From assembly GCA_045638805.1 (NCBI GenBank), contig JAZUBZ010000034.1, positions 7,458 through 71,457 of the forward strand: 64,000 nt of DNA. Reading direction: 5' to 3'. Positions 19,806 to 60,407 of this stretch are shown piece after piece. Position 1 is the first letter of the stretch; each line of letters starts with the position of its first letter. The stretch is from Eubacteriales bacterium (GTDB lineage: Bacteria > Bacillota > Clostridia > Oscillospirales > CAG-272). The position numbers and the translations under genes were made by a program. The notes below the pieces were generated by a model, which was not told the origin of the DNA, did no database searches, and was given only the letters and a program-made list of their open reading frames with translations.

Positions 19806-20516
19806 TTAAAGGTATGTACGCACACCGAAGATAGCACTTCCTACGCGAACCATAGTTGCGCCCTCCTCGATAGCTAAATCAAAACTGTCGCTCATACCCA
19901 TAGACAAAACAGCCTCTCTTATATTATGCGTTTTTTTTGTGAAATTGTCAATAAAAATCTTATAAGTTTCCCTAAAATATTTTCTTAAAACGCATTTTTC
20001 GACCCCGACAGGCCCCATAGTCATGATCCCGCGCAGGTCAAGGTGTGAAAAACGCTCGAATTCGTCGATCACAAAGGATGCATCCTGCGGTAGAAAACCG
20101 CTTTTGGCTTCTTCCTCAGCGCAGTTGATCTCGATGAGCACTGCCTGATGGATACCTTGTTTTTCTGCGATCCGGTCCATCTCCTCGGCAAGGCGGAGAG
20201 ACGAGATCGAGTGGATAAGGTCAGCCTTTCCCACTACGTACTTGAGCTTGTTGCTTTGCAGGTGCCCTATGAAGTGAAACTCATCAAGATGAGGTCTTAA
20301 AATGTCAAACTTGTCTCGGAACTCCTGGGCGCGGTTTTCACCTGCAAGCTTCAGACCGAGAGCATCTGCCGCAAAAATAATATCATCGGTGCATACGGTC
20401 TTGGTAGCCGCGAGAAGAGAGACTTCTTTACCGTCGCCGCGTTTTTCTGTGGCTTCGGCTATCCTTTCACGTATGCGGCGCAAATTGTCCGAAATTACTA
20501 TTTCTCTGTCGGTCAT
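19806..20516 (-). CDS. YggS/YlmE-family PLP-binding homeostasis protein
   Basis: LLAATK (PLP lysine), HFIGHLQSNK, LSMGMS.D and VRVGSAIFG motifs. Confidence 0.9.
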   Translation of the reverse strand: MTDREIVISDNLRRIRERIAEATEKRGDGKEVSLLAATKTVCTDDIIFAADALGLKLAGENRAQEFRDKFDILRPHLDEFHFIGHLQSNKLKYVVGKADLIHSISSLRLAEEMDRIAEKQGIHQAVLIEINCAEEEAKSGFLPQDASFVIDEFERFSHLDLRGIMTMGPVGVEKCVLRKYFRETYKIFIDNFTKKTHNIREAVLSMGMSDSFDLAIEEGATMVRVGSAIFGVRTYL

Positions 20517-22340: not shown

Positions 22341-22395
22341 ATAGCACGGTTCGAAAAAACCGTAACTGAATACCGTAAGACGGAGCAGTCACAAT

Positions 22396-22484
22396 GGAAA
22401 GGTGGCTGAGTTGGTCTAAGGCGCACGACTGGAAATCGTGTAACGGCTTATACCCGTTCGAGGGTTCGAATCCCTCCCTTTCCG
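22396..22484 (+). tRNA. tRNA-Ser (anticodon GGA), class II with long variable arm, no encoded CCA
   Basis: Acceptor GGAAAGG/CCTTTCC plus discriminator G. Anticodon arm CACGA-CTGGAAA-TCGTG. Variable arm AACGGCTTATACCCGTT. T-arm GAGGG-TTCGAAT-CCCTC. Confidence 0.9.
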
Positions 22485-22490
22485 AAAAAA

Positions 22491-22526
22491 GAAAACAGAC
22501 TCGAAAGAGTCTGTTTTCTTTTTTTT
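22491..22526 (+). terminator. Terminator after tRNA-Ser
   Basis: GAAAACAGACTC-GAAA-GAGTCTGTTTTC followed by T8. Confidence 0.85.
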
Positions 22527-22551
22527 GAAAGGATTAAACGGGATTCGAAAG
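22514..22551. repeat. Degenerate inverted copy of the tRNA-Ser 3' end (copy 1); a direct repeat of 24577-24614
   Basis: TTTTCTTTTTTTTGAAAGGATTAAACGGGATTCGAAAG. Compare the reverse complement of the tRNA 3' end plus trailer, TTTTCTTTTTTCGGAAAGGGAGGGATTCGAA. Confidence 0.8.
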
Positions 22552-22578
22552 CCGGTAGTCACATCGTGTAACGGTGAC

Positions 22579-22660
22579 CAAATGCGTGAGCATTTGCGGC
22601 GTGGATTTAGTCCGATGTTCGCACTTGCAATATCACGAGAAACTATTTACAAAAGGATGC
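22579..22660. repeat. Conserved tRNA-downstream module, copy A (hairpin + GGCGTGGATTTAGTCCGATGTTCGCACT core)
   Basis: The core 22595-22625 is identical to 49278-49308 at 30 of 31 positions. Further shared blocks are ATCACGAG and CAAAGGA. Confidence 0.8.
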
Positions 22661-22784
22661 CCATCTGTCTAAGAAATCCAGCAAAACGATACGCATCCGC
22701 ACTTGGCGGAGCCAAGTGATGGGTTCGCCGGTCCCGAACGCGCAAGCGTTCAATTCGCAGGGGCTATGAGAACGGGGTAGCGTT

Positions 22785-22816
22785 CCTTTTTCTTTTTTGG
22801 AAAGGGAGAGGGCGAG
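22785..22816. repeat. Second degenerate inverted copy of the tRNA-Ser acceptor/trailer (copy 2)
   Basis: CCTTTTTCTTTTTTGGAAAGGGAGAGGGCGAG. Its GGAAAGGGAG equals the reverse complement of the tRNA acceptor 3' strand region CTCCCTTTCC. Its flanks are shared with copy 3 at 24575-24622. Confidence 0.7.
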
Positions 22817-22852
22817 TACCTTCACGGATACTGAAAAGGAGCAATGATAACA

Positions 22853-23182
22853 TTATGAAAGAGATTGGAGATATACAGATAAAAGTTGTAGAGCAGTCTC
22901 ACGGTCTTTGGGTGAGCAGTCGCTAAGACGTGCGAAAAGCTCATCCTGTATTTGTGAGAGAGTAGGATTGTCATGTGTTAAAATCTCATTTGGGGTAATG
23001 TGAAGCGCATCGCAAATACGAAGAACTGTTTCTATACGCATATTAACGCTTCCACGTTCTATATCTGCGTATGTTCGATCAGATAACCCTGCAGCTTCAG
23101 CTACTTCAGCTTGCGTAAGACCCGCGCGTTTGCGAAAAGAGAAAAGTTTATTTCCTATTGTACGAAAATCGAAAACCAACAT
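22853..23182 (-). CDS. XRE-family (Cro/CI-type HTH) transcriptional regulator
   Basis: HTH segment LTQAEVAEAAGLSDRTYADIERG. The ATG at 23182 follows GGAGGAAG. AT-rich. Confidence 0.8.
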   Translation of the reverse strand: MLVFDFRTIGNKLFSFRKRAGLTQAEVAEAAGLSDRTYADIERGSVNMRIETVLRICDALHITPNEILTHDNPTLSQIQDELFARLSDCSPKDRETALQLLSVYLQSLS

Positions 23183-23231
23183 AATTCTTCCTCCAAATAC
23201 ATTGATATAGGAATTATACTTCAAAAATCTA

Positions 23232-23260: not shown

Positions 23261-23334
23261 TAAATGAAGGATAGTTCCTGATGATGGTGGTTTTACTTAT
23301 TCTAGGATATGTGATGAAAGGAGATTTAATTCAT

Positions 23335-24294
23335 ATGACACGATTACTTGCGTTTCTTTTAGCGTTGATGATGTGCCTAACGTTTACAGCGTGTAAAGAT
23401 AAAAACAAGGATGACACGGAAGAAAAGGATGATATACATATTGAGGGGGAAATGCAATTTGATAATAAAAAAGCACCAAGCGAGGCAACTATATTAAATG
23501 ATTTAGGGGAAAAATTGTTGGACAAAAATGAGTTTGTTAACCTGACAAACGTGACTACTGTAAAAAGTTTAACAGATGATGGTTATTTTAGTGTTACTTT
23601 AGAGGTACAAGCGGCAAGTGATTACACTGATTGGGTGTATGAAGTTGAGTTAGAATATACTAAGTATGACCAAGGATGGATGTTGGATAATGCATCTTGG
23701 CTATCCGAGGAGTATACCATTGCCAGAGTACCGACTTTAGAAGTTATTACTGAACTGGCTAATAATGTGGATAAGAGTGAAGTAAACTTTGGCTCAATGT
23801 TACCGGTAAGTAATGCAACTATAGATACGGACGATACACTTGAAACCGGGATCTTGTGGTTTACTTGGTCGTTTGAAGAGGAATACCCGCACGTATACCA
23901 AACTACAGTTTGTACAACGAAATGGTCGTATGATGTACTATCGGATGAATGGAAGTGTATTCCTTATGATGAGTCGTCAGGTGAGGCTAAACTTATATAT
24001 AATGTGACTCCCAAAGATGTTGATTTTTCCGGCGAATGGACCGGAAGTGGTTTTGTTTCTACGATTATAATTGAAGATTTTTCTTGGGACGGCTTTACTG
24101 TTACTGTTGACGGAGAATCAAGTTATTATCGGTCCATATATGGTCATCCCAAAACTAGTGAAAAATCCTTTGGGTGGTTCAGTGACGGTAGTAACTATAT
24201 ACATATAAGTTCAGGTCCTAGAGGTAGTAGTATACAACTTCTCTCGATTGGGCAAAGATCAACAACTCAAATTTTCTATGGCTCCCTCGATTAA
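23335..24294 (+). CDS. Hypothetical lipoprotein
   Basis: MTRLLAFLLALMMCLTFTACKDKNK (lipobox LTFTAC), RBS AAAGGAG, AT-rich. No family recognised. Confidence 0.65.
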   Translation: MTRLLAFLLALMMCLTFTACKDKNKDDTEEKDDIHIEGEMQFDNKKAPSEATILNDLGEKLLDKNEFVNLTNVTTVKSLTDDGYFSVTLEVQAASDYTDWVYEVELEYTKYDQGWMLDNASWLSEEYTIARVPTLEVITELANNVDKSEVNFGSMLPVSNATIDTDDTLETGILWFTWSFEEEYPHVYQTTVCTTKWSYDVLSDEWKCIPYDESSGEAKLIYNVTPKDVDFSGEWTGSGFVSTIIIEDFSWDGFTVTVDGESSYYRSIYGHPKTSEKSFGWFSDGSNYIHISSGPRGSSIQLLSIGQRSTTQIFYGSLD

Positions 24295-24576
24295 GATTTT
24301 AAATTGCACAACTTTTGTTTTAATGCTACCAAGCAAATTATAAACCAAAAGGTCACACATCATTAGGAATTAGTTGAAACATAATAAAAGGCATAAAAAG
24401 GGATTGTTTTATTTCATTAAGAAATTGTAAATGCCAAGGATAACCCTACAAAAAAGCCAAGGACATTAAAAGCATTTAAATGGTGTCTTTATGTCCTTGG
24501 CTTTTTATTGATTGTGTTATATGTTTTCATCTCAAAAATTCAATATGAGACTGCCTCATGGGCTCCCAGGCTATCC

Positions 24577-24614
24577 TTTTTCTTTTTTTGAAAGGATAAA
24601 ACGGGATTCGAAAG
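24577..24614. repeat. Copy 3 of the tRNA-Ser-derived repeat (direct repeat of 22514-22551)
   Basis: TTTTTCTTTTTTTGAAAGGATAAAACGGGATTCGAAAG. The core GAAAGGATWAAACGGGATTCGAAAG has 1 mismatch to copy 1. Confidence 0.8.
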
Positions 24615-24730
24615 GGGGCGAGCCTCTTGTTATCCGTACGGCTTTATGCTACAATAAATACGTAACTCGTTTACCGCGTCTTTACCGTAAATATGTTAAA
24701 CTAAACGTGAATTTATAACCGAGGTATAAT

Positions 24731-28809: not shown

Positions 28810-29205
28810 GTGAGAAAATTAATGGGTGTATTGTTGCTGACCTTAATTATTTGCTTGCTGGTAGGATGTGCCGAAGAAAAAGCTAGTCCGGCGGAAGATT
28901 TCAAGTATTACATTGAGGATAATGAGATTACAATTACAGGTTATACCGGGGATGATAGCGAAGTGTATATTCCATCTGAAATTGCAGGCTATAAGGTAAC
29001 CGGACTTGGATGGAGCGCTTTTGAGGATTGTAATACGATAATGTCGGTAAGCATTCCCGAATCCGTTGTGAATTTTGATAGTGTTGTATTCGTAAGGTGC
29101 GAAAAATTAATTACAGTAATTTTTCCGTCCCACATGGACATTGAAGAAGCAAAAGGTCAAATAGGTTCCAGCTGCTACAACTGTGTTGACATTAAGATCC
29201 GATAA
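28810..29205 (+). CDS. Lipoprotein with BspA-type leucine-rich-repeat segment
   Basis: GTG start 8 nt after GGAGG. VRKLMGVLLLTLIICLLVGCAEE lipobox. IPSEI..Y.VT.LG..AF..C....SV.IPESV pattern. Confidence 0.55.
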   Translation: MRKLMGVLLLTLIICLLVGCAEEKASPAEDFKYYIEDNEITITGYTGDDSEVYIPSEIAGYKVTGLGWSAFEDCNTIMSVSIPESVVNFDSVVFVRCEKLITVIFPSHMDIEEAKGQIGSSCYNCVDIKIR

Positions 29206-29250
29206 AAAATAACACGGAAAAGATTTTAAAATCTTTTCCGTGTTATTTTT
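29205..29250. terminator. Bidirectional terminator
   Basis: 18-bp perfect stem AATAACACGGAAAAGATT / AATCTTTTCCGTGTTATT, loop TTAA, A/T runs on both sides. Confidence 0.85.
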
Positions 29251-42104: not shown

Positions 42105-42383
42105 TTACTGCTGACCCTTCATCTCTGCAAAGCAATCGCTGCAGTATACAGGTCTGTCACTGTTGGGCTGGAAAGGAACTTTAGCTTCCTTGCCGCACTT
42201 GTGGCATACTGTTGTAAACATTTCTCTGGGTTCGCGTGTTGCATTCTTGCGTGCATCGCGGCAAGCCTTGCATCTCTGGGGCTCATTCTGGAAGCCCTTC
42301 TCTGCGTAAAATTCCTGCTCGCCTGCTGTGAATACGAAATCGTTGCCGCATTCCTTGCACTTAAGGGTCTTGTCCTGGTACAT
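42105..42383 (-). CDS. Small zinc-ribbon protein (CxxC...CxxC x2)
   Basis: 92 aa with CKECG...CKAC and CHKCG...CSDC pairs. RBS GAGGGA. Confidence 0.75.
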   Translation of the reverse strand: MYQDKTLKCKECGNDFVFTAGEQEFYAEKGFQNEPQRCKACRDARKNATREPREMFTTVCHKCGKEAKVPFQPNSDRPVYCSDCFAEMKGQQ

Positions 42384-42522
42384 CTTGTGTTCCCTCGCTT
42401 TAAAAATATGGAAAAAATTTCTGCCCTCGGCGGAATCAAACCGCCACCTTTGAAACCAACGCTCTTACATTAAGCTATACGGGCATATATATACACGGCT
42501 CCTGCCGTAGTATTCGTAGTAT

Positions 42523-43104
42523 CTACCGCTTCAGCTTTACCCTTATGCGGTATAATGCGTTATTGACAGACCTTATGCTTCGGCCAAGCTCCTCTGCGAT
42601 AGTGGGGATCTTCTTTCCTTCTGCATAAGCTTTGAGAACCTTCTCTTCATAACGGGAAAGTTCATCGCCTTCGTTGCGAAGTATTTCCTCCAGTGCGAGC
42701 TTCATCGTCGCATCCGGAATGTCGTCGCGCACTGATCTGGTATCGTCAAGAGAAGCGCGTCTGATCCTGTCGCTTCGTCTTTTTTTTGCGCTGAGTCTTC
42801 GATACTCAGACGTTAATGCATTTCTCATGCAGATCTTGGCAAAAAGTCCAAACGTAACCTTTTCTCCTACGCCGTCCGGATCGTAGCTGAGACTTGCACG
42901 GTAAAGGGCAAGTCTGGCTTCCTGTCGTAAATCATCAACAGCATCCCCCGGAGATACGATACCCGACCTTCCAAGATATTCTGCTGTACTTAGAGCGACG
43001 GAATCAATGAGAGAGGAGTAGTTCTCCGTAAGCGTATGGAAGGCCAATTCATCTCCGTTCTTGATCCGAGCCAACAGTTCAAGTGTTGTTTTATCTGTAC
43101 TCAA
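42523..43104 (-). CDS. Sigma-70-family RNA polymerase sigma factor (region 2 + region 4 only)
   Basis: Region-2-like ...AFHTLTENYSSLIDSVA...DDLRQEARLALYRA. Region-4 HTH IPTIAEELGRSIRSVNNALYRIRVKL. TTG start with a weak RBS. Confidence 0.7.
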   Translation of the reverse strand: MSTDKTTLELLARIKNGDELAFHTLTENYSSLIDSVALSTAEYLGRSGIVSPGDAVDDLRQEARLALYRASLSYDPDGVGEKVTFGLFAKICMRNALTSEYRRLSAKKRRSDRIRRASLDDTRSVRDDIPDATMKLALEEILRNEGDELSRYEEKVLKAYAEGKKIPTIAEELGRSIRSVNNALYRIRVKLKR

Positions 43105-48599: not shown

Positions 48600-48850
48600 A
48601 AAAAAGACTCCGCGTACACGCCGAGCCTCAGAAAAAGACACCGAAAACTTGCCACAGAGCCACGGCTCCGCATTCGGTTGCACTTTGTCCTTTTGCCTGA
48701 GAGATTAGCGGTATTCGCTTTGCACCTTCGGCACTCAATTTAATGAGCTTCTCCAAAGTTCTATCGGCTTACAGTCCCGTCCCGTAGGGACACCTGAGAG
48801 CGTTACTCCTTCGGTTGCCGTGTCGGCATTTCCTGCAAGCGTCATATAGA
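48600..48850 (-). promoter_or_regulatory. Tandem glycine riboswitch leader of the AGCS symporter gene
   Basis: The minus strand shows two aptamers. Aptamer 1: ...CAGGAAATGCC...CCGAAGGAGTAA...CTCAGG...GGGAC. Aptamer 2: GGAGAAGC...GCCGAAGGTGCAA...CTCTCAGGCAAAAGGAC. A hairpin plus T-run lies before the RBS. Confidence 0.8.
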
Positions 48851-48872
48851 GTATTTATTTTTCATGAGTAGT

Positions 48873-48901
48873 ATTATAGTACAAAGAATGACAAATTGCA
48901 A
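48873..48901 (-). promoter_or_regulatory. Promoter candidate for the glycine-riboswitch transcript
   Basis: Minus strand: TTGCAA, 17-nt spacer, TATAAT. Confidence 0.5.
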
Positions 48902-49077
48902 CAGTAAAATGAACATTTTTTTAACTTCGGCGTTTTGCTGTATTTTAGCCCTTTAGCACGGTAAAACGCTGTCAAAATTTGTACATATAGCACATTACAG
49001 TTTACTGCGTGTGGAAAAAGGTCAGTATATGGGCGAATGAAATCACAGAAAAGGGGAGAGAAAAAGTACAATTACAC

Positions 49078-49106
49078 TTGACATCTGTGGTTGTTTTTGA
49101 TATAAT
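49078..49106 (+). promoter_or_regulatory. Promoter candidate for tRNA-Pro
   Basis: TTGACA, 17-nt spacer, TATAAT, 17 nt upstream of the tRNA 5' end. Confidence 0.65.
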
Positions 49107-49123
49107 ACTACTGTTATGTATTT

Positions 49124-49197
49124 CGGGGTGTGGCTCAGTTTGGTAGAGCGCGACGTTCGGGACGTCGAAGCCGCTGGTTCGAATCCAGTCACTCCGA
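49124..49197 (+). tRNA. tRNA-Pro (anticodon CGG), no encoded CCA
   Basis: Acceptor CGGGGTG/CACTCCG plus discriminator A. D-arm GCTC-AGTTTGGTA-GAGC. Anticodon arm CGACG-TTCGGGA-CGTCG. T-arm GCTGG-TTCGAAT-CCAGT. Confidence 0.9.
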
Positions 49198-49250
49198 AAA
49201 AGAAAAAGCAGGGATTGCCCTGCTTTTTCTTTTTCGGAGTGACTGGATTC
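49181..49250. repeat. Perfect 33-bp inverted repeat (4-nt loop) whose left arm is the tRNA-Pro 3' end plus trailer; the inner part acts as terminator
   Basis: 49181-49213 GAATCCAGTCACTCCGAAAAAGAAAAAGCAGGG, loop ATTG, 49218-49250 CCCTGCTTTTTCTTTTTCGGAGTGACTGGATTC. I checked the pairing base by base. Confidence 0.95.
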
Positions 49251-49257
49251 AGAAAGA

Positions 49258-49350
49258 GCACATTCGCTTACGCGAAGTGCGGCGTGGATCTAGTCCGATG
49301 TTCGCACTAGTTACATCACGAGCGGGTTACCCAAAGGACGCAGACGCGTC
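49258..49350. repeat. Conserved tRNA-downstream module, copy B, ending in a plus-strand hairpin + T-run
   Basis: Hairpin GCACATTCGC-TTAC-GCGAAGTGC, then the core GGCGTGGATCTAGTCCGATGTTCGCACT, then ATCACGAG, then AGGACGC-AGA-GCGTCCT followed by TTTATTTTC. Confidence 0.8.
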
Positions 49351-49353
49351 CTT

Positions 49354-50766
49354 TTATTTTCTCTTAAACAATTTTACGAATAAGTTTTTTATGCCGGGTA
49401 ATTTATGATATATGTTCAGATCAGCTATCAATTCATCACAATTCTGATATCTGTCGTTGGGGTGACGCTCAATGCATTTGGAAATTATGTATTCAAGTCC
49501 GCGGGGGAGCGCGGGATCCGTTTTACGGACAGGTAATAATTCGTATGGAGGTTGCGTAGGATCAATCCCTGTTACAAGGTAGTGCATTGTAATTCCAAGG
49601 GAATATATATCTGTTCTTGCATCGATCGGGCAGAATTGAGAAAAACATTCCGGTGCGGCATAAGATAAGGTACCTAATATTGTCGATTTTCCGGCATTGA
49701 TCCTGTCACAAGTATCAACTCTGTGAAAATCAACAACTTTAAGGCTGCCGTCTGTTGTAAGAATGATGTTTGCAGGCTCTATATTACGGCAAACGTGAGG
49801 AGGTGTCTTTTTATGAAAATGATTCAGAAGGCTGCAAAGATCTTTAGCCCACCTAACGACTGTGTCAGCGGACTGAGCTCCGTTACTTCTCAGCAGACTT
49901 GCCAGGCTTGTACCTTCAATACGTTCATTTACGATAAAAATATATTCATTATCCTCGATAATATCAAAACATTCCGGAATTAAGGGATGCTTGTTTTTTA
50001 TTATCCAATACGTCTCGTTTAAATATAATTCACGCATGGTGGGTGCATAATAACGGTTTGTTTTATCCCATACTTTCATTGATAGTTTCTTTGACGTACT
50101 GTTGTCCTGTACAATAAACATCGAAGAGATTCCGTTGTTACATACAAATTCAGTGACCGAATATCTGTCGCCTATTACTTTGCCGAGAAGTTTATCCTTT
50201 ATGGTGGGAACAGTTGCGTTTTTTGATGGGATGGTCGGAGGATTCGGAAATGATTGTTTTTTTACGTCATATGTATTATACGAATGGTTCGGTTTATAGA
50301 ATATATATTTCTCAGAATTCGCAAAACAAATTTCGTCAGCGGGATTAAGCTGATATTTCTTCCCGGGTATCATTAAATTTCCATTCAAACAAGTGCCGTT
50401 CAGGGAAGTGTTGTCTCTGATAAACCAACGGCTGTTCTCATAATGGAATGAAGCATGATGTTTTGCCACCATACGGTTTGACATGAGACGGATGTCACAA
50501 GACTCATGTTTTCCTACGGTTATTATTTCTTTATCAAACTTTAATACTTCGTTAGTGCTTTCGACTGTAAGTGACAAAGAACAGGAATATAAAATAGTGG
50601 TTATTCCCGGAGGGTTCATAACGTATTCACCTATGTCGTACATATCCAACATATGATCATCCGGATCATTAATGATCTTAAATTCTTCGCCGCATATTTT
50701 ACACTTCTTTTTTATATAGCAGCAGTTGGTCTCCAATACCTCATATTCATGCTTGCACGGAGTCAT
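49354..50766 (-). CDS. Zinc-ribbon + FHA-domain + Ser/Thr-kinase-like protein with degenerate catalytic motifs (predicted pseudokinase)
   Basis: N-terminal C..........CC......C..C. FHA segment (ITVGKHESCDIRL...VAKHHA...NTSLNGTCLNG). Kinase fold with SMKV, AAPE and DIYSLG retained, but CRNIEPAN in place of HRD.KP.N, DFH in place of DFG, and no G.G..G loop. Confidence 0.75.
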   Translation of the reverse strand: MTPCKHEYEVLETNCCYIKKKCKICGEEFKIINDPDDHMLDMYDIGEYVMNPPGITTILYSCSLSLTVESTNEVLKFDKEIITVGKHESCDIRLMSNRMVAKHHASFHYENSRWFIRDNTSLNGTCLNGNLMIPGKKYQLNPADEICFANSEKYIFYKPNHSYNTYDVKKQSFPNPPTIPSKNATVPTIKDKLLGKVIGDRYSVTEFVCNNGISSMFIVQDNSTSKKLSMKVWDKTNRYYAPTMRELYLNETYWIIKNKHPLIPECFDIIEDNEYIFIVNERIEGTSLASLLRSNGAQSADTVVRWAKDLCSLLNHFHKKTPPHVCRNIEPANIILTTDGSLKVVDFHRVDTCDRINAGKSTILGTLSYAAPECFSQFCPIDARTDIYSLGITMHYLVTGIDPTQPPYELLPVRKTDPALPRGLEYIISKCIERHPNDRYQNCDELIADLNIYHKLPGIKNLFVKLFKRK

Positions 50767-57134: not shown

Positions 57135-59765
57135 TTACAGCTTTTCCTTTACACTCTTAAGAGCTTCTTCGATACCGATCTTCTTTTCACGGTACTTTTC
57201 AAGCTTTTCTCTCTCAGCTTCAACAACAGCCGCGGGAGCACGTGACGTAAAGCCTTCGTTGTTCAGTTTTCCCTCAGCTCTCTTGATCTCAGCGTCAACT
57301 GTCTTAAGCTCCTTTTCAAGTCTTTCAGCCTCTGCCGCAAAGTCTACCATATCTGCAAGGGGAATATAGATCGCCGCAGAATCGGTGATGATCTGTACAG
57401 CACCCTCGTCGGAGTAGCTTTCTACAACAGCAAAGCTTGATGCGGAAGCGAGCTTCTCGAAGAAGATACCTGCATTCTTAAAGCTGTCCTCGTACTTTGT
57501 AACTACGTTTACAGCCGCCTTTCTGGAGGGAACAACGCCCATCTCAGCGCGTCTTGCGCGGATAGCCTTGATAGCGGAGATAACTCTCTCAAAGGATGCA
57601 GTTTCATCTGCGAAAGAGGGGATCTTATCTGCCTCGGGATAATCCTTCAGCATGATAGTGCCGTCCTCACCGGGAAGACCTGAGTAGATCTCCTCTGTGA
57701 TGAAGGGCATGAAGGGATGGAGAAGCTTAAGTACTTCGCGGAGAACGTATGCGAGAACGTTCTGAGCGCACTTACTTCTTTCCTCGTCTGCACCGGATAC
57801 AGAGGGCTTGGAAAGCTCAATGTACCAGTCGCAGTATACGTCCCAGATAAAGTCGTAGATGGAAGAGAGGGCAACGCCGATCTCATAGTTGTCGAGGTTT
57901 ACGGTAACGTTATTTACTGTCTCTGAAAACTTTGTAAGGATCCACTTGTCCTCGGCAGCAAGCTTGTCTGTTTCGGGAAGCTCGATCTTGTCGATGGTAA
58001 GGTTCATCATTACGAAACGGGCAGCATTCCAAAGCTTGTTAGCAAAGTTACGCGCAGCCTCGATCTTCTCGTCGGAGAAACGCATATCGTTTCCGGGGCT
58101 GTTACCCGTGCCGAGTGCGAAGCGGAGCGCGTCTGCACCGTACTTAGAGATGATCTCAAGAGGATCGATACCGTTTCCGAGGGACTTGGACATCTTACGT
58201 CCCTGTGCGTCACGAACGAGACCGTGGATAAGAACGGTGTCGAAGGGGATCTGACCTGTGTACTCAAGGGATGAGAAGATCATACGGGATACCCAGAAGG
58301 TGATGATATCGTATCCTGTTACAAGTGTGCTTGTGGGGAAGTATCTCTTAAGATCCTCGGTGTCATGAGGCCAGCCGAGAGTTGAGAAGGGCCAGAGCGC
58401 GGAGGAGAACCATGTATCGAGAGTATCAGGGTCCTGAGTCATGGTGCCGCCGCACTTAGGACAAGTGCAAACTGCATCCTTGGAAACTACAGTCTCGCCG
58501 CACTTATCGCAGTAGTAAGCGGGGATTCTGTGACCCCACCAGAGCTGACGGGAGATACACCAGTCCTGTGTGTTCTCCATCCAGTGGAAGTAGTTCTTGT
58601 CAAATCTTTCGGGAACGAAGCGGATGTCGCCGTCGCGTACTGCTTTAACAGCGGGCTTAGCGAGGGGCTCCATCTTTACGAACCACTGAAGGCTGAGCAT
58701 AGGCTCAATAGTGGTTCCGCAACGGTAACAGGTACCAACCTCGTGGTCGAGGTCTTCAATTTCAGCAAGGTAACCGCCTGCACGGAGATCCTCAACGATA
58801 GCCTTTCTTGCTTCGTAGCGGTCCATGCCAGCGTACTTGGGATAGTTTTCGGTGATCTTAGCGTCCTCAGTGAGTACAACCTCCATGGGAAGTGAGCAGC
58901 GCTTTCCTACCTCGAAGTCGTTGGGGTCGTGTGCGGGAGTAATCTTAACGCAACCGGTACCCTTATCAAGCTGAGCGTGCTCGTCTGCAACGATGGGAAT
59001 ACGTCTGCCAACGAGGGGAAGTACAACGTACTTGCCGATCATATCCTTATATCTTTCGTCCGCGGGGTTTACAGCAACCGCGGTGTCACCGAGAAGTGTT
59101 TCGGGACGTGTGGTAGCAACCTCAACGTATCCGCCGCCACCAACGAGGGGGTAACGGATGTGCCAGAAGTGGCCGTTCTGAGACTCGTAGTCTACCTCTG
59201 CGTTGGAGATAGAGGTCTTGCAGTGAGGACACCAGTTGATGATACGCTCGCCGCGGTAGATGAGTCCCTTTTCATAAAGGCGTACGAATACCTCGCGTAC
59301 TGCTTCGGAGCAACCCTCGTCAAGAGTGAAACGCTCTCTTGACCAGTCGCAAGAAGAACCGAGCTTCTTGAGCTGTTCGATGATACGTCCGCCGTACTGT
59401 TCCTTCCAAGCCCATGCTCTCTCAAGGAATTTGTCTCTTCCCAGGTCTTCCTTTGTAAGACCTTCTTTTCTCATAGCTTCAACAATCTTAGCCTCGGTTG
59501 CGATAGACGCGTGGTCTGTGCCGGGGAGCCAGAGAGTGTCAAAGCCCTTCATTCTCTTGTAGCGGATAAGGATATCCTGGAGAGTGTTGTCAAGAGCGTG
59601 ACCCATGTGAAGCTGTCCTGTGATGTTCGGAGGGGGAATAACGATGGTGAAGTTTTCTGCGCCGTCCTTGCCGGAGGGAGCAAAGCAGTTATCTGCCACC
59701 CAAGAAGAGTATATTCTCTCTTCAAAGTCGGCAGGGTTATAGGTTTTTGCCAGTTCTTTTCTCAT
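57135..59765 (-). CDS. valS: Valine--tRNA ligase
   Basis: HIGH-type motif PPPNITGQLHMGHAL, the KMSKS motif, a C-terminal coiled coil, 876 aa. Confidence 0.95.
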   Translation of the reverse strand: MRKELAKTYNPADFEERIYSSWVADNCFAPSGKDGAENFTIVIPPPNITGQLHMGHALDNTLQDILIRYKRMKGFDTLWLPGTDHASIATEAKIVEAMRKEGLTKEDLGRDKFLERAWAWKEQYGGRIIEQLKKLGSSCDWSRERFTLDEGCSEAVREVFVRLYEKGLIYRGERIINWCPHCKTSISNAEVDYESQNGHFWHIRYPLVGGGGYVEVATTRPETLLGDTAVAVNPADERYKDMIGKYVVLPLVGRRIPIVADEHAQLDKGTGCVKITPAHDPNDFEVGKRCSLPMEVVLTEDAKITENYPKYAGMDRYEARKAIVEDLRAGGYLAEIEDLDHEVGTCYRCGTTIEPMLSLQWFVKMEPLAKPAVKAVRDGDIRFVPERFDKNYFHWMENTQDWCISRQLWWGHRIPAYYCDKCGETVVSKDAVCTCPKCGGTMTQDPDTLDTWFSSALWPFSTLGWPHDTEDLKRYFPTSTLVTGYDIITFWVSRMIFSSLEYTGQIPFDTVLIHGLVRDAQGRKMSKSLGNGIDPLEIISKYGADALRFALGTGNSPGNDMRFSDEKIEAARNFANKLWNAARFVMMNLTIDKIELPETDKLAAEDKWILTKFSETVNNVTVNLDNYEIGVALSSIYDFIWDVYCDWYIELSKPSVSGADEERSKCAQNVLAYVLREVLKLLHPFMPFITEEIYSGLPGEDGTIMLKDYPEADKIPSFADETASFERVISAIKAIRARRAEMGVVPSRKAAVNVVTKYEDSFKNAGIFFEKLASASSFAVVESYSDEGAVQIITDSAAIYIPLADMVDFAAEAERLEKELKTVDAEIKRAEGKLNNEGFTSRAPAAVVEAEREKLEKYREKKIGIEEALKSVKEKL

Positions 59766-59849: not shown

Positions 59850-60160
59850 GTAGGGACGACAGCACATTCATTGCGCGAAGTGCGGCGGTCCGTTTTCACA
59901 AGGGGATCAGGTTTATGCTATATCCGAAGATGGAACCATCCCCATTCATTGTAGGGACCGACGTCCTCGGCGGTCCGTTTCGCGTGGGTTTGGTTATCCT
60001 TCATCCGAAGAAGAAACCATCTCAAACGGCGAAGTTTTCTCGGATTTCTTCGAAATCCTCACATCCTTGCCTTATCACAAAAAAGATAACGTTTCTCTGT
60101 CTCGTGCGAATACTCGCACGATGAGGGACCATTTTTTCGTAGGGGACGACGTTCCGTTTC
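59850..60160. repeat. Cluster of GTAGGG-headed hairpin (REP-like) units and short direct repeats inside the valS leader
   Basis: GTAGGGACGAC...GGCGGTCCGTTTT (59850), GTAGGGACCGACGTCCTCGGCGGTCCGTTTC (59951), GTAGGGGACGACGTTCCGTTTC (60139). ATCCGAAGATGGAACCATC and ATCCGAAGAAGAAACCATC. Hairpins GGATTTC/GAAATCC and CTCGTGCGA/TCGCACGA. Confidence 0.75.
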
Positions 60161-60171
60161 GCTCTTCACCC

Positions 60172-60400
60172 AAAATAAAAAACGCCCTGAAAACTCAGGA
60201 CGCAAACAGCGCGGTACCACCTGACTTCATACGAGTTCGTATGCAGCTTACGTGTCCGTAACGTGGACGTGCGGCGCAGACTACTGCTTTTTTCACCTGC
60301 GCGGCTCGGGAGCTACTTCGAAGACCGTTATCTGCGACGATTTCACCATCCGCCGCTCTCTTTGAGATACGTTTTCTCCTACTACTCTCCGTCAAAGCCT
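60172..60400 (-). promoter_or_regulatory. T-box riboswitch leader (valine class inferred) of valS
   Basis: Minus strand: Stem-I AGAGA/GGTGAAA elements, a candidate specifier GUA (60316-60314), the T-box core GGTGGTACCGCG (60221-60210), and the terminator CGTCCTGAG-TTTT-CAGGGCG plus T6. Confidence 0.8.
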
Positions 60401-60407
60401 TTATAGT

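Follow-up and report, generated by a model that had tools for sequence, protein, structure and literature searches.

Why should the last nucleotides of a tRNA gene be repeated, as an exact reverse complement, on the far side of its own terminator? This question is raised by a tRNA-Pro gene in a 64,000-nucleotide stretch of DNA from an Eubacteriales bacterium (hereafter the window), in which an earlier note, made from the sequence alone, recognised a perfect palindrome whose outermost 17 nt on the far arm were left unexplained. Here we show that these nucleotides form the 5' end of a conserved element of ~100-120 nt, followed by its own terminator and including a 30-nt core found at both the tRNA-Pro and the tRNA-Ser locus. 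Its carriers are a small clade of uncultured gut Clostridia, in which it comes immediately after the terminator of single tRNA genes lacking an encoded CCA. Related fragments used for comparison are referred to by L numbers.

Results

A perfect palindrome joins the end of tRNA-Pro to its terminator

Inverted-repeat search returned the palindrome exactly where the earlier note had placed it, with arms at 49181-49213 and 49218-49250, 33 of 33 positions complementary and a 4-nt loop, ATTG, and this pair of 33-nt arms is the longest inverted repeat of the whole window. The parts of the locus up to the far arm are:

49078-49106, + strand: tRNA-Pro promoter, TTGACA-17-TATAAT with TG (consensus match 12/12)
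49123-49198, + strand: tRNA-Pro(CGG), CCA not encoded (ARAGORN; Rfam tRNA, 63 bits at 49124-49197)
49181-49213, + strand: near arm, made of the 17 terminal nucleotides of tRNA-Pro, the A-tract AAAAGAAAAA and the 5' terminator stem GCAGGG
49208-49234, + strand: terminator core GCAGGG-ATTG-CCCTGC, then TTTTTCTTTTT (from the sequence)
49218-49250, + strand: far arm (inverted-repeat search)

The tRNA-derived part of the near arm reads GAATCC (T loop and T stem), AGT, CACTCCG (3' strand of the acceptor) and the discriminator A, while the far arm is composed of CCCTGC (49218-49223), TTTTTCTTTTT (49224-49234) and CGGAGTGACTGGATTC (49235-49250). The inner GCAGGG/CCCTGC stem with its T-run is, as had been supposed, a normal terminator, and because its A-tract is mirrored (AAAAAGAAAAA upstream of the stem) it qualifies as a bidirectional intrinsic terminator. 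An automatic terminator scan of the window did not list the 49208-49234 core, probably because the stem is far longer than the 20 pairs counted, with no T-run after it. Another perfect bidirectional terminator of the window is a 46-bp palindrome at 29205-29250.

As RNA, the 70-mer palindrome folds at -59.5 kcal/mol compared with -15.4 +/- 3.0 for 200 dinucleotide shuffles (z = -14.7; 0/200 as good), and as DNA at -40.5 kcal/mol (z = -16.6). Cloverleaf and terminator together are predicted at -53.4 kcal/mol; with the far arm included, the minimum free energy structure is the 33-bp hairpin in place of the cloverleaf, at -78.5 kcal/mol. The proposal that the far arm can out-compete the cloverleaf thus holds thermodynamically, whereas the masking of 3' processing proposed with it would be limited to transcripts that read through the terminator.

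An assembly artefact is an unlikely source of the palindrome, judging from its surroundings: the two flanks read coherently, independent assemblies contain homologues of the downstream element, and relatives with an identical tRNA-Pro have a like mirrored A-tract/hairpin/T-tract. The tRNA-Pro sequence is identical in L006 and L024, and its promoter is kept in both. Identity of the far arm to the tRNA ends at the T loop and the partner strands are absent; ARAGORN and Rfam gave no tRNA matches on the minus strand of either the tRNA-Pro or the tRNA-Ser locus. A minus-strand tRNA, tmRNA or tRNA-like gene ending in the far arm was rejected on these grounds.

The far arm opens a conserved structured element

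The conserved structured element begins with the outer 16 nt of the far arm (49235-49250), its 5' "head"; its parts behind tRNA-Pro are:

49235-49329, + strand: flank element, type B (covariance-model match 49231-49329, 40.1 bits, E 2.7e-9)
49235-49256, + strand: head, CGGAGTG (anti-acceptor), ACTGG (anti-T stem), ATTC (anti-T loop), then AGAAAG
49258-49280, + strand: type-B hairpin GCACATTCGC-TTAC-GCGAAGTGC
49279-49308, + strand: conserved core GCGGCGTGGATCTAGTCCGATGTTCGCACT (two matches in the window, the other at 22596-22625)
49297-49322, + strand: hairpin P3 (GATGT...ACATC) and conserved tail ACGAG (alignment, RNAalifold)
49333-49354, + strand: the element's own intrinsic terminator, GGACGC-AGAC-GCGTCC, then TTTTATTTT (terminator scan)

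The type B element has one hairpin in place of the P0/P1a/P1b domain described below. This hairpin is also found in units of L001 and L002 and, nested in the loops of REP sequences, at 59862-59883 of the window and 1925-1946 of L006. The 30-nt core (GCGGCGTGGATYTAGTCCGATGTTCGCACT, also written CGTGGATYTAGTCCGATGTTCGCA) is present at both tRNA loci with 0 expected from 100 shuffles, differs by 1 nt between the Pro and Ser units and is kept in L001, L002 and L024. P3 (helix 5) is less well supported than the other helices. The element's own terminator points the same way as tRNA-Pro, and beyond the element lie convergent genes.

The tRNA-Ser gene of the window is followed by the full form of the element:

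22395-22485, + strand: tRNA-Ser(GGA), CCA not encoded (ARAGORN, Rfam)
22465-22551, + strand: interrupted palindrome from the tRNA-Ser 3' strand to the head GAAAGG-ATTAAAC-GGGATTCGAAAG (inverted-repeat search, folds)
22526-22646, + strand: flank element, type A, full form (covariance-model match, 133.4 bits)
22770-22818, + strand: second terminator, T-run and degenerate anti-tRNA-Ser head GGAAAGGGAGAGGGCGAG
24576-24640, + strand: third anti-tRNA-Ser head GAAAGG-ATAAAAC-GGGATTCGAAAG with truncated body (weak covariance-model match 24589-24664)

The inner arms of the interrupted palindrome (22477-22502 and 22507-22532; 26 nt, 92%) are separated by an asymmetric 2/7-nt loop from perfect 10-nt outer arms (22465-22474 and 22540-22549). 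Two of the head modules flank a 1.8-kb segment with XRE and lipoprotein genes, and CTTTTTCTTTTT stands upstream of heads at 22786, 24576 and 49223. The tRNA-Ser locus had earlier been read as a decayed version of the same architecture. The repeat is indeed present, but it is not a decayed Pro copy, because the interrupted head (anti-acceptor, spacer of ~7 nt, anti-T arm) is the commoner form and is itself conserved, at 88-96% identity in three genomes.

Copies behind other tRNA genes carry matching heads

The covariance model gave 12 matches in five independent assemblies, behind tRNA-Pro, Ser, Arg and Trp: the Pro and Ser copies of the window, three Arg copies and one Trp copy in L001, two copies in L002, two Ser copies in L015, a Pro copy in L024 and a Ser copy in L025, the Ser copies of L015 and L025 being orthologous to the type A element of the window. 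This is a small sample, drawn throughout from metagenome assemblies. In the ~250 kb of fragments searched, copies occurred only behind tRNA genes, and wherever the contig includes the tRNA they are co-oriented with it and immediately behind it. The earlier expectation that tRNA-Pro would not be a one-off is borne out by the like layout at tRNA-Ser and at tRNA genes of four other assemblies. The elements are sometimes arranged in tandem arrays, and copies within these arrays still carry heads, with no neighbouring tRNA available for pairing in cis.

When heads were scored against tRNAs in a matrix, each head scored highest against its own tRNA, with the window Pro head best against the 3' strand of tRNA-Pro; by alignment this head is also homologous to the others. 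The order within the head is constant, the complement of the acceptor strand preceding that of the T-stem strand and T loop, and at G.U positions the match is to the 3' strand of the tRNA, not to the 5' strand. Most heads are broken by a conserved 6-7-nt spacer (ATWNMA-like) and the L024 Pro head by a 4-nt gap. Only the window Pro copy has an uninterrupted head, and for this reason the palindrome at tRNA-Pro is perfect. At the orthologous tRNA-Ser locus of three genomes the leader is 51-72% and the terminator 64-86% identical, which leaves the head as the best-conserved segment outside the tRNA.

The A-tract and T-tract on either side of the terminator are exact mirrors despite genome-specific interruptions (AAAAAGAAAAAG/CTTTTTCTTTTT, AAAAAATAAAAG/CTTTTATTTTTT and AAAAAAGAAAAAA/TTTTTTCTTTTTT). 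In L024, behind an identical tRNA-Pro, the head consists of the same 15 nt without CGGA (the complement of TCCG), leaving a 4-nt bulge; the terminator stem and the body type also differ between the window and L024, so CGGA is not a clean single-event difference.

Three internal helices of the element covary. In an alignment of eight copies, fitted to the model, 95% of cells were paired compared with 34-44% with slid partners, 11 pairs had changed on both sides, and the observed score was reached by 0/500 shuffles. The covarying helices P0, P1a and P1b consist of Watson-Crick pairs only, without a G.U in ~150 cells. The outer helix (helix 1) lacks double compensatory changes, and L015 no longer has it. 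Wobble pairs of the outer helix and of the terminator stems are G.U only on the tRNA-sense strand, and the terminators of the units point in the direction of the tRNA.

No match of the element to a described family

Rfam 15 returned no family match over 49235-49354 and 22526-22700 up to E <= 10, and across both window loci and three related loci gave only hairpin-like noise, such as miRNA models. No element matches were found in viral contigs, in JGI metagenomes (core pattern) or by blastn against phages and plasmids, and a literature search on motifs or repeats downstream of tRNA genes turned up nothing relevant. We could not match the arrangement, in which the start of an element repeats the 3' end of its own tRNA as a reverse complement, to any described family.

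Several simpler readings of its parts were set aside. A small ORF from a conserved ATG in GATGTTCGC showed substitutions spread evenly over the three codon positions and variable stop positions (hand count). The spacer is unpaired and has no matching R' box, unlike an integron attC R box (RYYYAAC), and the resemblance of the reverse-complemented core to 16S rRNA (TCCACGCCG.AAA) is a 9-mer match expected by chance. Candidate promoters within the T-run, head and spacer were rejected on both strands, their -10-like strings lacking the invariant A2. As no sigma-70-like promoter for the element was found between the tRNA terminator and the head, its RNA would be made only by read-through of a good terminator.

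Synteny was followed via the symporter and RpiB genes; in several of their relatives the tRNA neighbourhood was lost, and these added nothing. Homologues of the neighbouring kinase were only ~50% identical. YggS adjoins tRNA-Pro in L006 and L024 and lies 29 kb away in the window, and a simple inversion between element copies found no support as the reason, there being no element remnant upstream of YggS in the window. Pfam assigned the ten ORFs flanking the loci to XRE HTH, histidine kinase, response regulator, FHA-kinase and other families, with no recombinase among them.

Discussion

A matched head possibly acting in cis

The reading that we favour, tentatively and with somewhat less than even confidence, is as follows. 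The element flanks tRNA genes, the match between its head and the tRNA is probably maintained by template switching over the terminator hairpin, and when a transcript reads through, the element would capture the 3' strand of that tRNA. Intrastrand template switching (quasipalindrome correction) would have both generated the heads and preserved their agreement with the adjacent tRNA. Such correction may have nucleated on two blocks already paired, one being the mirrored A-tract/hairpin/T-tract and the other the universal T-loop sequence TTCGAA; in the window genome the two corrected tracts at tRNA-Pro would have met. Template switching is documented as a route to new and perfected hairpins (PMC8794818, PMC7202029). 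The earlier note had attributed the perfect symmetry to a template switch or to selection, and this still seems the most reasonable cause. The 4-nt bulge of L024 looks like the imperfect state to be expected before a correction.

A single template switch would erase the spacer, and yet the spacer is conserved across tRNA types; we propose the two nucleation sites as an account of its persistence. The distal direct repeats of L001, L006, L024 and L026 appear to point to recombination or insertion over simple hairpin growth, and the Watson-Crick-only helices P0, P1a and P1b fit DNA hairpins or template-switch products as well as RNA. Also against this reading are the array copies, whose heads have no tRNA beside them, and the promoter search, which found none for the element.

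As for function, the element would act on the same RNA strand as the tRNA. On read-through past the first terminator the head would pair perfectly with the tRNA 3' strand and displace the native acceptor stem, which contains G.U, together with the T arm, and the long duplex so formed is a plausible RNase III substrate. The element may thus work as a cis-antisense fail-safe or processing module, and would set the 5' end of the structured RNA downstream.

A possible guide acting in trans

Alternatively, the element could be a trans-acting RNA of ~100-120 nt whose 5' head is a programmable two-segment anti-tRNA guide around a constant spacer, directed at the 3' half of the cognate tRNA, the pre-tRNA, a 3' tRNA fragment or the tRNA gene. 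Protein binding or a structural switch would fall to the constant body and core, and the palindrome at tRNA-Pro would simply reflect the adjacency of guide and target. We think this improbable, while acknowledging how well several features suit it. The design is modular, with a highly conserved constant body and a core that hardly changes between Pro and Ser; the spacer is constant and both segments around it vary with the tRNA; the head is the most conserved segment outside the tRNA; and array copies hold heads with no tRNA beside them. The spacer lies exactly at the junction of acceptor and T stem, where the rest of the tRNA leaves the coaxial stack, and the predicted outer helix would let the core (UYUAGUCC) sequester the anti-T-loop part of the head in a switch-like manner. 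That same helix, however, has no double compensatory change and is absent in L015, neither a promoter nor a partner protein gene was found in the neighbourhood, and a folded, modified tRNA is a poor antisense target. We know of no natural precedent for such a guide. In its fullest form, a family of small RNAs beside tRNA genes, made of bipartite guides on a constant scaffold that recruit a protein or switch upon meeting unfolded, unprocessed or cleaved tRNA, the idea is likewise doubtful; to our knowledge, there is no description from bacteria of antisense RNAs that survey, process or regulate individual tRNAs.

A possible mobile or integrative element

Equally improbable as a whole, although suggested by a number of details in the relatives, is the view that the element is the scar or miniature of a tRNA-targeting mobile or integrative DNA element that entered by recombination at the 3' end of the tRNA, together with the tRNA 3' end, terminator and head. 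An attachment site in folded form (hairpin or cruciform) would then be composed of the sense copy, the hairpin and the antisense copy, and the internal hairpins would be single-stranded DNA signals (REP/BIME-like), possibly for a REP-associated tyrosine transposase (RAYT) or an integrase encoded elsewhere. In several relatives the insert ends in a directly repeated piece of the tRNA 3' region: 18 nt at tRNA-Trp of L001; ~16 nt at tRNA-Arg of L001, followed by what appears to be the original terminator; 13-15 nt with a pseudo T arm at tRNA-Pro of L024 and L006; and 23 nt at tRNA-Ser(GCT) of L026, where the body is unrelated. Because the distal copy in L024 and L006 lacks the last 4-5 acceptor nucleotides, it is not simply the displaced original 3' end, and the window has no direct repeat of the Pro or Ser tRNA 3' end and no recombinase near either locus.

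Presence/absence polymorphism, with different tRNA genes occupying the slot upstream of the symporter in relatives, also speaks for mobility, as do the tandem arrays, the purely Watson-Crick covarying helices and the two head modules around the XRE and lipoprotein segment of the window. Against this, elements at the same tRNA are orthologous across genomes, which implies long vertical residence, and the phage, plasmid and viral collections held no matches.

The element resembles REP/BIME/REPIN sequences in being a small extragenic unit of hairpins with compensatory changes, occurring as mosaics at the 3' ends of transcription units. REPs and a RAYT exist in these genomes, and the type-B hairpin is a module that the element shares with REP loops. 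In L006 one such palindrome is interrupted by a RAYT gene, and L007 has an intact homologue (NCBIfam NF047646, E 3e-13, below the curated cut-off). GTAG precedes P1a in the window Ser copy, L002, L024 and L025, and GAAG or TTTG does so in L001 and L015. However, the RAYT homologues of L006 and L007 carry or adjoin REPs of the form GTAGGGACCG...CGGTCC, a family different from the element, and the window has no RAYT gene; unlike REPs, the element stands only at tRNA flanks in the DNA examined, and has a long non-palindromic core and a flank-specific head.

Integration sites (attL/attR) share with the element the use of the tRNA 3' end from the T loop on, the distal direct repeats and strain polymorphism of the relatives, and the replaced tRNA 3' end seen in L016. 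Classical att recombination yields direct repeats, not inverted ones. The repeat here is inverted, no integrase is present, the inserts measure 0.15-0.6 kb and the window lacks a direct repeat. The earlier note would have abandoned its reading if the far arm were the end of an unrelated insertion; the far arm does end a distinct element, but one that is matched to the tRNA and hence not unrelated.

A possible local accident

That a single recent template switch, or else a chimera of the assembly, lengthened an ordinary bidirectional terminator until it reached into the tRNA, with no part played by the sequence downstream, would suit the 33/33 symmetry, the other perfect bidirectional terminators of the window, such as the 46-bp one, and the uniqueness of the uninterrupted Pro head, but it is highly improbable and as a full explanation already contradicted, given that tRNA-matched heads also occur at the tRNA-Ser locus of the window and that four other assemblies have them at tRNA-Pro, Ser, Arg and Trp, in every case fused to the same conserved element, that relatives with an identical tRNA-Pro already have 15 of the 16-17 head nucleotides, and that both flanks agree with independent assemblies.

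Likeness to known systems

The inner 16-17 bp of each arm are those of a bidirectional intrinsic terminator, with perfect equivalents between convergent genes of the window. In contrast to such terminators, the helix here runs on for 16-17 nt into a functional RNA gene, in a tRNA-specific manner, and this extension belongs to a conserved downstream element. Quasipalindrome correction leaves perfect reverse-complement copies beside their template and keeps hairpin arms matched (PMC8794818; PMC7202029). Two observations fit such correction: A- and T-tracts that vary from genome to genome yet remain mirrored, and the lack of CGGA in L024. Undirected template switching does not predict the unpaired spacer that persists in most heads or the constant attached element.

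The primer-binding site of retroviruses and LTR retrotransposons likewise complements, over ~17-18 nt, the 3' end of a particular tRNA; the heads, in contrast, are preceded by T-runs and not by TGG (there is no complement of CCA), no reverse transcriptase is present, and the element adjoins the tRNA gene itself. T-box leader RNAs are structured RNAs of Firmicutes that read one specific tRNA by base pairing. They pair with the anticodon and the NCCA end and sit upstream of the gene that they regulate, whereas the element lies downstream of a tRNA gene and is complementary to its acceptor and T strands; the Rfam T-box model matched the window only at 60193-60404, and not at the element. Permuted (two-piece) tmRNA and permuted tRNA genes share the order of acceptor 3' strand, intervening loop and acceptor 5'-type strand, and the layout of the head (a 7-nt acceptor-type strand, a short linker and GGAUUCGA) resembles a tmRNA 5' end. 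Here, however, a whole tRNA, 5' strand included, makes up the upstream piece; a T arm, a tag frame and CCA are all missing from the element, and tmRNA models gave nothing significant on the element loci.

Implications

If the heads are functional, they would constitute a natural RNA or DNA element addressed to individual tRNAs by 15-20 nt of complementarity, and would offer a testable route to tRNA-specific quality control or regulation. If they are products of template switching, these loci would document unusually well, in a natural setting, the formation and upkeep of long hairpins through replication errors; the hairpins here invade a functional RNA gene, and related genomes preserve several intermediates. 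Either way, the 3' flanks of tRNA genes in this clade are hot spots of recombination and rearrangement, at which contigs break within the arrays (L002, L025), with consequences for the assembly of metagenome-derived genomes, and at which the 3' ends of the tRNAs themselves can be chimeric (L016).

The tRNA-Pro palindrome and its predicted fold

The longest inverted repeat that a repeat search recovered from the whole window is a perfect palindrome at the 3' end of tRNA-Pro(CGG), with the sequence and coordinates that the earlier note had described. The features of the locus are as follows.

49181-49213 and 49218-49250: palindrome arms (near and far), 33 nt each, 100% complementary, with ATTG (4 nt) between them (inverted-repeat search)
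49123-49198 (ARAGORN) or 49124-49197 (Rfam): tRNA-Pro(CGG), no encoded CCA
49078-49106: tRNA-Pro promoter, 12/12 consensus match
49258-49280: type-B hairpin of the flank element, GCACATTCGC-TTAC-GCGAAGTGC
49333-49354: second terminator (terminator scan)

By the ARAGORN and Rfam coordinates, the last 17 nt of the tRNA lie inside the near arm. The stability of the palindrome is far above chance, both as an RNA hairpin (-59.5 kcal/mol; shuffles give -15.4 +/- 3.0) and as a DNA hairpin (-40.5 kcal/mol, z = -16.6). Its inner part, comprising the A-tract, GCAGGG/CCCTGC and the T-tract, is an ordinary bidirectional terminator and a member of that class. Next in length among the window's inverted repeats is a perfect 46-bp palindrome between convergent genes (AAAAATAACACGGAAAAGATTTTAAAATCTTTTCCGTGTTATTTTT, 29205-29250), probably a bidirectional terminator as well.

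Folded without the far arm, tRNA-Pro and its terminator adopt a cloverleaf with a minimum free energy (MFE) of -53.4 kcal/mol; with the far arm included, the MFE structure becomes a continuous 33-bp hairpin of -78.5 kcal/mol, in which the T arm and the 3' strand of the acceptor stem are taken up. The competition with the cloverleaf previously proposed for the far arm is thus borne out in predicted folds, and the tRNA-Ser locus undergoes the same switch, with an internal loop. The far arm comes after the T-run, so the switch would be relevant only in transcripts that pass the first terminator.

A conserved flank element behind tRNA genes

When aligned, the regions 3' of the window's tRNA-Pro and tRNA-Ser share sequence that the earlier note had overlooked. 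A conserved core, GCGGCGTGGATYTAGTCCGATGTTCGCACT, is present at 49279-49308 and 22596-22625 and at no other site in the window (0 expected from shuffles), and both loci have the same order on the tRNA strand: tRNA; A-tract, hairpin and T-tract; a head, the reverse complement of the tRNA's own 3' strand; GAAAG; a hairpin domain; the core; a small hairpin with ACGAG; and a second terminator. From this shared layout, the outer 16 nt of the far arm (49235-49250) are the 5' edge of a structured flank element, with window copies at 49235-49329 (Pro) and 22526-22646 (Ser). The outer 17 nt, formerly regarded as unexplained, are accordingly identified as the head of a conserved element, matched to its cognate tRNA. 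Neither window copy matches an Rfam family, even at E <= 10.

The bodies of these elements are of two types. In type A, a four-base helix (P0) surrounds hairpins P1a and P1b, while in type B, to which the window's Pro copy belongs, a single hairpin takes the place of all three. In a small sample of eight copies, the model structure is paired in 95% of cells (34-44% with partners slid), and two-sided changes occur at 11 pairs, a degree of covariation reached by 0/500 shuffles. P0, for example, appears as GCCG/CGGC, GGGG/CCCC and GTGG/CCAC, and as GCCC/GGGC in the Trp copy. The covarying helices are exclusively Watson-Crick, a pattern equally compatible with RNA and with DNA hairpins or products of template switching. 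The constant orientation of the element relative to the tRNA, the terminators 3' of it that work in the tRNA's direction, and the wobble pairs of the outer helix and terminator stems, which are G.U on the tRNA strand only, are evidence for that strand being the functional one.

An exact-pattern scan of species-representative genomes matched two MAGs: L001 (Eubacteriales), in which tRNA-Arg is followed by three elements in tandem, tRNA-Trp by a partial one and tRNA-Gln by a degenerate inverted copy, and L002 (Clostridia, goat rectum), with a three-element array at a contig end. A second pattern recovered the metagenomic loci L024 (tRNA-Pro) and L025 (tRNA-Ser), and synteny of the neighbouring symporter and RpiB genes led to further relatives at the Pro slot (L006, L003, L026) and the Ser slot (L015, L016). 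A covariance model built from four copies found 12 copies in five assemblies and, in the window, the two known copies only; no match was found in viral contigs or in phage or plasmid collections. The L002 and L025 contigs both terminate (position 1) within an element array, which suggests that the repeats break short-read assemblies.

Heads are matched to their own tRNAs

In a scoring of 13 heads against the reverse-complemented 3' ends of five tRNAs, each head whose neighbour is known scored best with its own tRNA, marginally so for Gln. Where the native acceptor or T stem contains a G.U pair (Pro, Arg, Trp), the head is the complement of the 3' strand and not a copy of the 5' strand. The heads of Ser, Arg and Trp are interrupted by similar spacers of 6-7 nt (ATTAAAC, ATAAAAC, ATTGAAC, ATAGAA, ATTGCA, ATTTAAC), exactly at the boundary between anti-acceptor and anti-T-stem. 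The L024 Pro head is contiguous and lacks CGGA, leaving TCCG as a 4-nt bulge; only the window's Pro copy has an uninterrupted head.

At the orthologous tRNA-Ser locus compared across three genomes, identity is 98-100% in the tRNA, 88-96% in the head, 71-86% in P0-P1b, 64-86% in the terminator, 58-85% in the core, 51-72% in the leader and 22-31% in the tail. The interrupted head is therefore a maintained feature and not the decayed architecture it had been taken for. Of the original interpretation, the palindrome and the ability of the far arm to displace the cloverleaf in folding stand, as does the view that the arrangement is not a one-off, with tRNA-matched heads at tRNA-Ser and at tRNA loci in relatives; the unexplained outer arm and the decay at tRNA-Ser do not.

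The arrangement can be described as a terminator quasipalindrome that is extended and joined to a structured extragenic repeat. As a whole it is similar to quasipalindromes maintained by template switching, from which the conserved spacer of most heads appears to set it apart, and to REP/BIME mosaics, tRNA att sites, retroviral primer-binding sites, T-box leaders and permuted tmRNA genes, each of which it departs from in at least one testable defining feature. No description of a tRNA-specific head in such elements was found in the literature searched.

Changing contents of the tRNA slots

Among relatives with 85-95% identical symporters (L003, L006, L024, L026, L007), the slot immediately upstream of the glycine-riboswitch/alanine-symporter gene (window 48674-49250) holds tRNA-Pro(CGG), another, CCA-bearing tRNA-Pro(CGG) allele, tRNA-Ser(GCT) or no tRNA. 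L006 has a tRNA-Pro identical to the window's and the same terminator stem; the 12 nt that follow (TGAAACGACCGG) match the window head CGGAGTGACTGG at 7/12 positions, with transitions at the other five, and their complementarity to the tRNA is only partial. Further downstream lie a different small element with a terminal pseudo T arm, a disrupted gene for a REP-associated tyrosine transposase (RAYT) inside a second palindrome, and YggS. L003 carries the other tRNA-Pro(CGG) allele, with encoded CCA and a plain terminator, and L026 carries tRNA-Ser(GCT), accompanied by an inverted copy that resembles a head, a body of unrelated sequence and a direct repeat (23 nt) of the 3' end of the tRNA. In L006 and L024, YggS comes after the tRNA-Pro flank; in the window it is at 19806-20516, near tRNA-Ser.

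At the Ser slot, L016 (2688-2779, minus strand) and L015 (2690-2780, minus strand) encode identical RpiB proteins and diverge at the T stem of tRNA-Ser(GGA) and in everything beyond it. The L016 tRNA is chimeric, with a foreign CCA-bearing 3' end (TCTCTCCGCCA), an A4:C69 mismatch, no element and entirely different downstream genes. This pattern is the hallmark of an integration event. Inserts at L001 Trp, L001 Arg and L024/L006 Pro are also closed by distal direct repeats of the tRNA 3' region; the window has no such repeat of the tRNA 3' end, and no nearby recombinase gene, at its Pro or Ser locus. Encoded CCA is absent from all element-linked tRNA genes (window, L001, L015, L024, L025), each of which runs directly into an A-tract, and is present in all three element-less alleles in relatives (L003, L016, L027), a small sample.

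Several smaller observations concern the same loci and their surroundings. A second small conserved element, X, lies 3' of tRNA-Pro in L024 (1060-1215; folding z = -3.3) and L006 (2203-2327, minus strand); its end is formed by a REP-like hairpin (CCGGTTTCGCC...GGCGAACACCG) together with a pseudo T arm, CTGGTATCGAATCCAGTCA(C/T), from which the last acceptor nucleotides are missing, and it has no Rfam match. Three REP-like palindromes starting with GTAGGGAC (such as GTAGGGACCGACGTCCTCGGCGGTCC at about 59953) occupy window 59850-60165 (plus strand), between a gene start at 59765 and a T-box leader at 60193-60404; the type-B hairpin AGCACATTCATTGCGCGAAGTGCG is nested in the loop of one. A RAYT-like gene, present in L007 (6556-7095, minus strand) and L006 (1733-2079, minus strand), matches NCBIfam NF047646 (E 3e-13, below the curated cut-off) and contains copies of its REP (GTAGGGACCGGCGTC...CGGTCC) in both orientations within the coding sequence; in L006 one of these REPs carries an inserted type-B hairpin, and the reading frame is disrupted. 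Direct copies of a module of terminator, CTTTTTCTTTTT and anti-tRNA-Ser head (22770-22818 and 24560-24640) bracket a 1.8-kb segment with an XRE-family gene (22853-23224, minus strand) and a 337-aa protein (23281-24294, plus strand) that has no Pfam match and whose N-terminus is lipoprotein-like, an arrangement that looks like a cassette between copies of the element. At 42422-42484 (minus strand), between an ORF end near 42525 and the start of a small zinc-ribbon ORF near 42382, a 63-nt sequence matches the Rfam tRNA model (32.4 bits; no ARAGORN call), with acceptor, D and T arms present and the anticodon arm almost deleted.

Origin and possible role

The reading we tentatively prefer combines matching of the head by template switching in DNA with cis action on read-through transcripts, the latter being the function we infer for the flank element. 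Intrastrand template switching, a known route to building and perfecting hairpins (PMC8794818, PMC7202029), would make the head and keep it matched to the tRNA. Consistent with this, the mirrored A/T-tracts remain exact complements despite interruptions that differ between genomes, and the L024 head lacks only one short patch (CGGA) of the perfect state found in the window. Persistence of the spacer could be explained if a putative correction starts separately at two paired blocks, one being the terminator and the other the universal TTCGAA, and usually stops at the bulge.

A small RNA acting in trans, with a bipartite anti-tRNA guide, would account for the modular design and for the heads retained in array copies, but it has no recognisable promoter or partner and no known precedent, and it seems unlikely. 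Similarly improbable is an origin as the scar, or a miniature, of a mobile element that targets tRNA genes and has a folded attachment site, possibly tied to the REP/RAYT system that these genomes carry. In its favour are the distal direct repeats of relatives, strain polymorphism, arrays, purely Watson-Crick helices and a REP-like hairpin in common; against it are the inverted repeat orientation, the absence of a recombinase, the different REP family around RAYT genes and the persistence of orthologous copies from genome to genome. A one-off template switch or assembly chimera, with irrelevant downstream sequence, is very hard to credit when matched heads recur fused to the same flank element.

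Under the preferred combination of template switching and cis action, the head would pair within read-through transcripts to form a long duplex, a possible RNase III substrate, and cleavage there would remove pre-tRNA that had escaped termination and set free the structured RNA that lies downstream.
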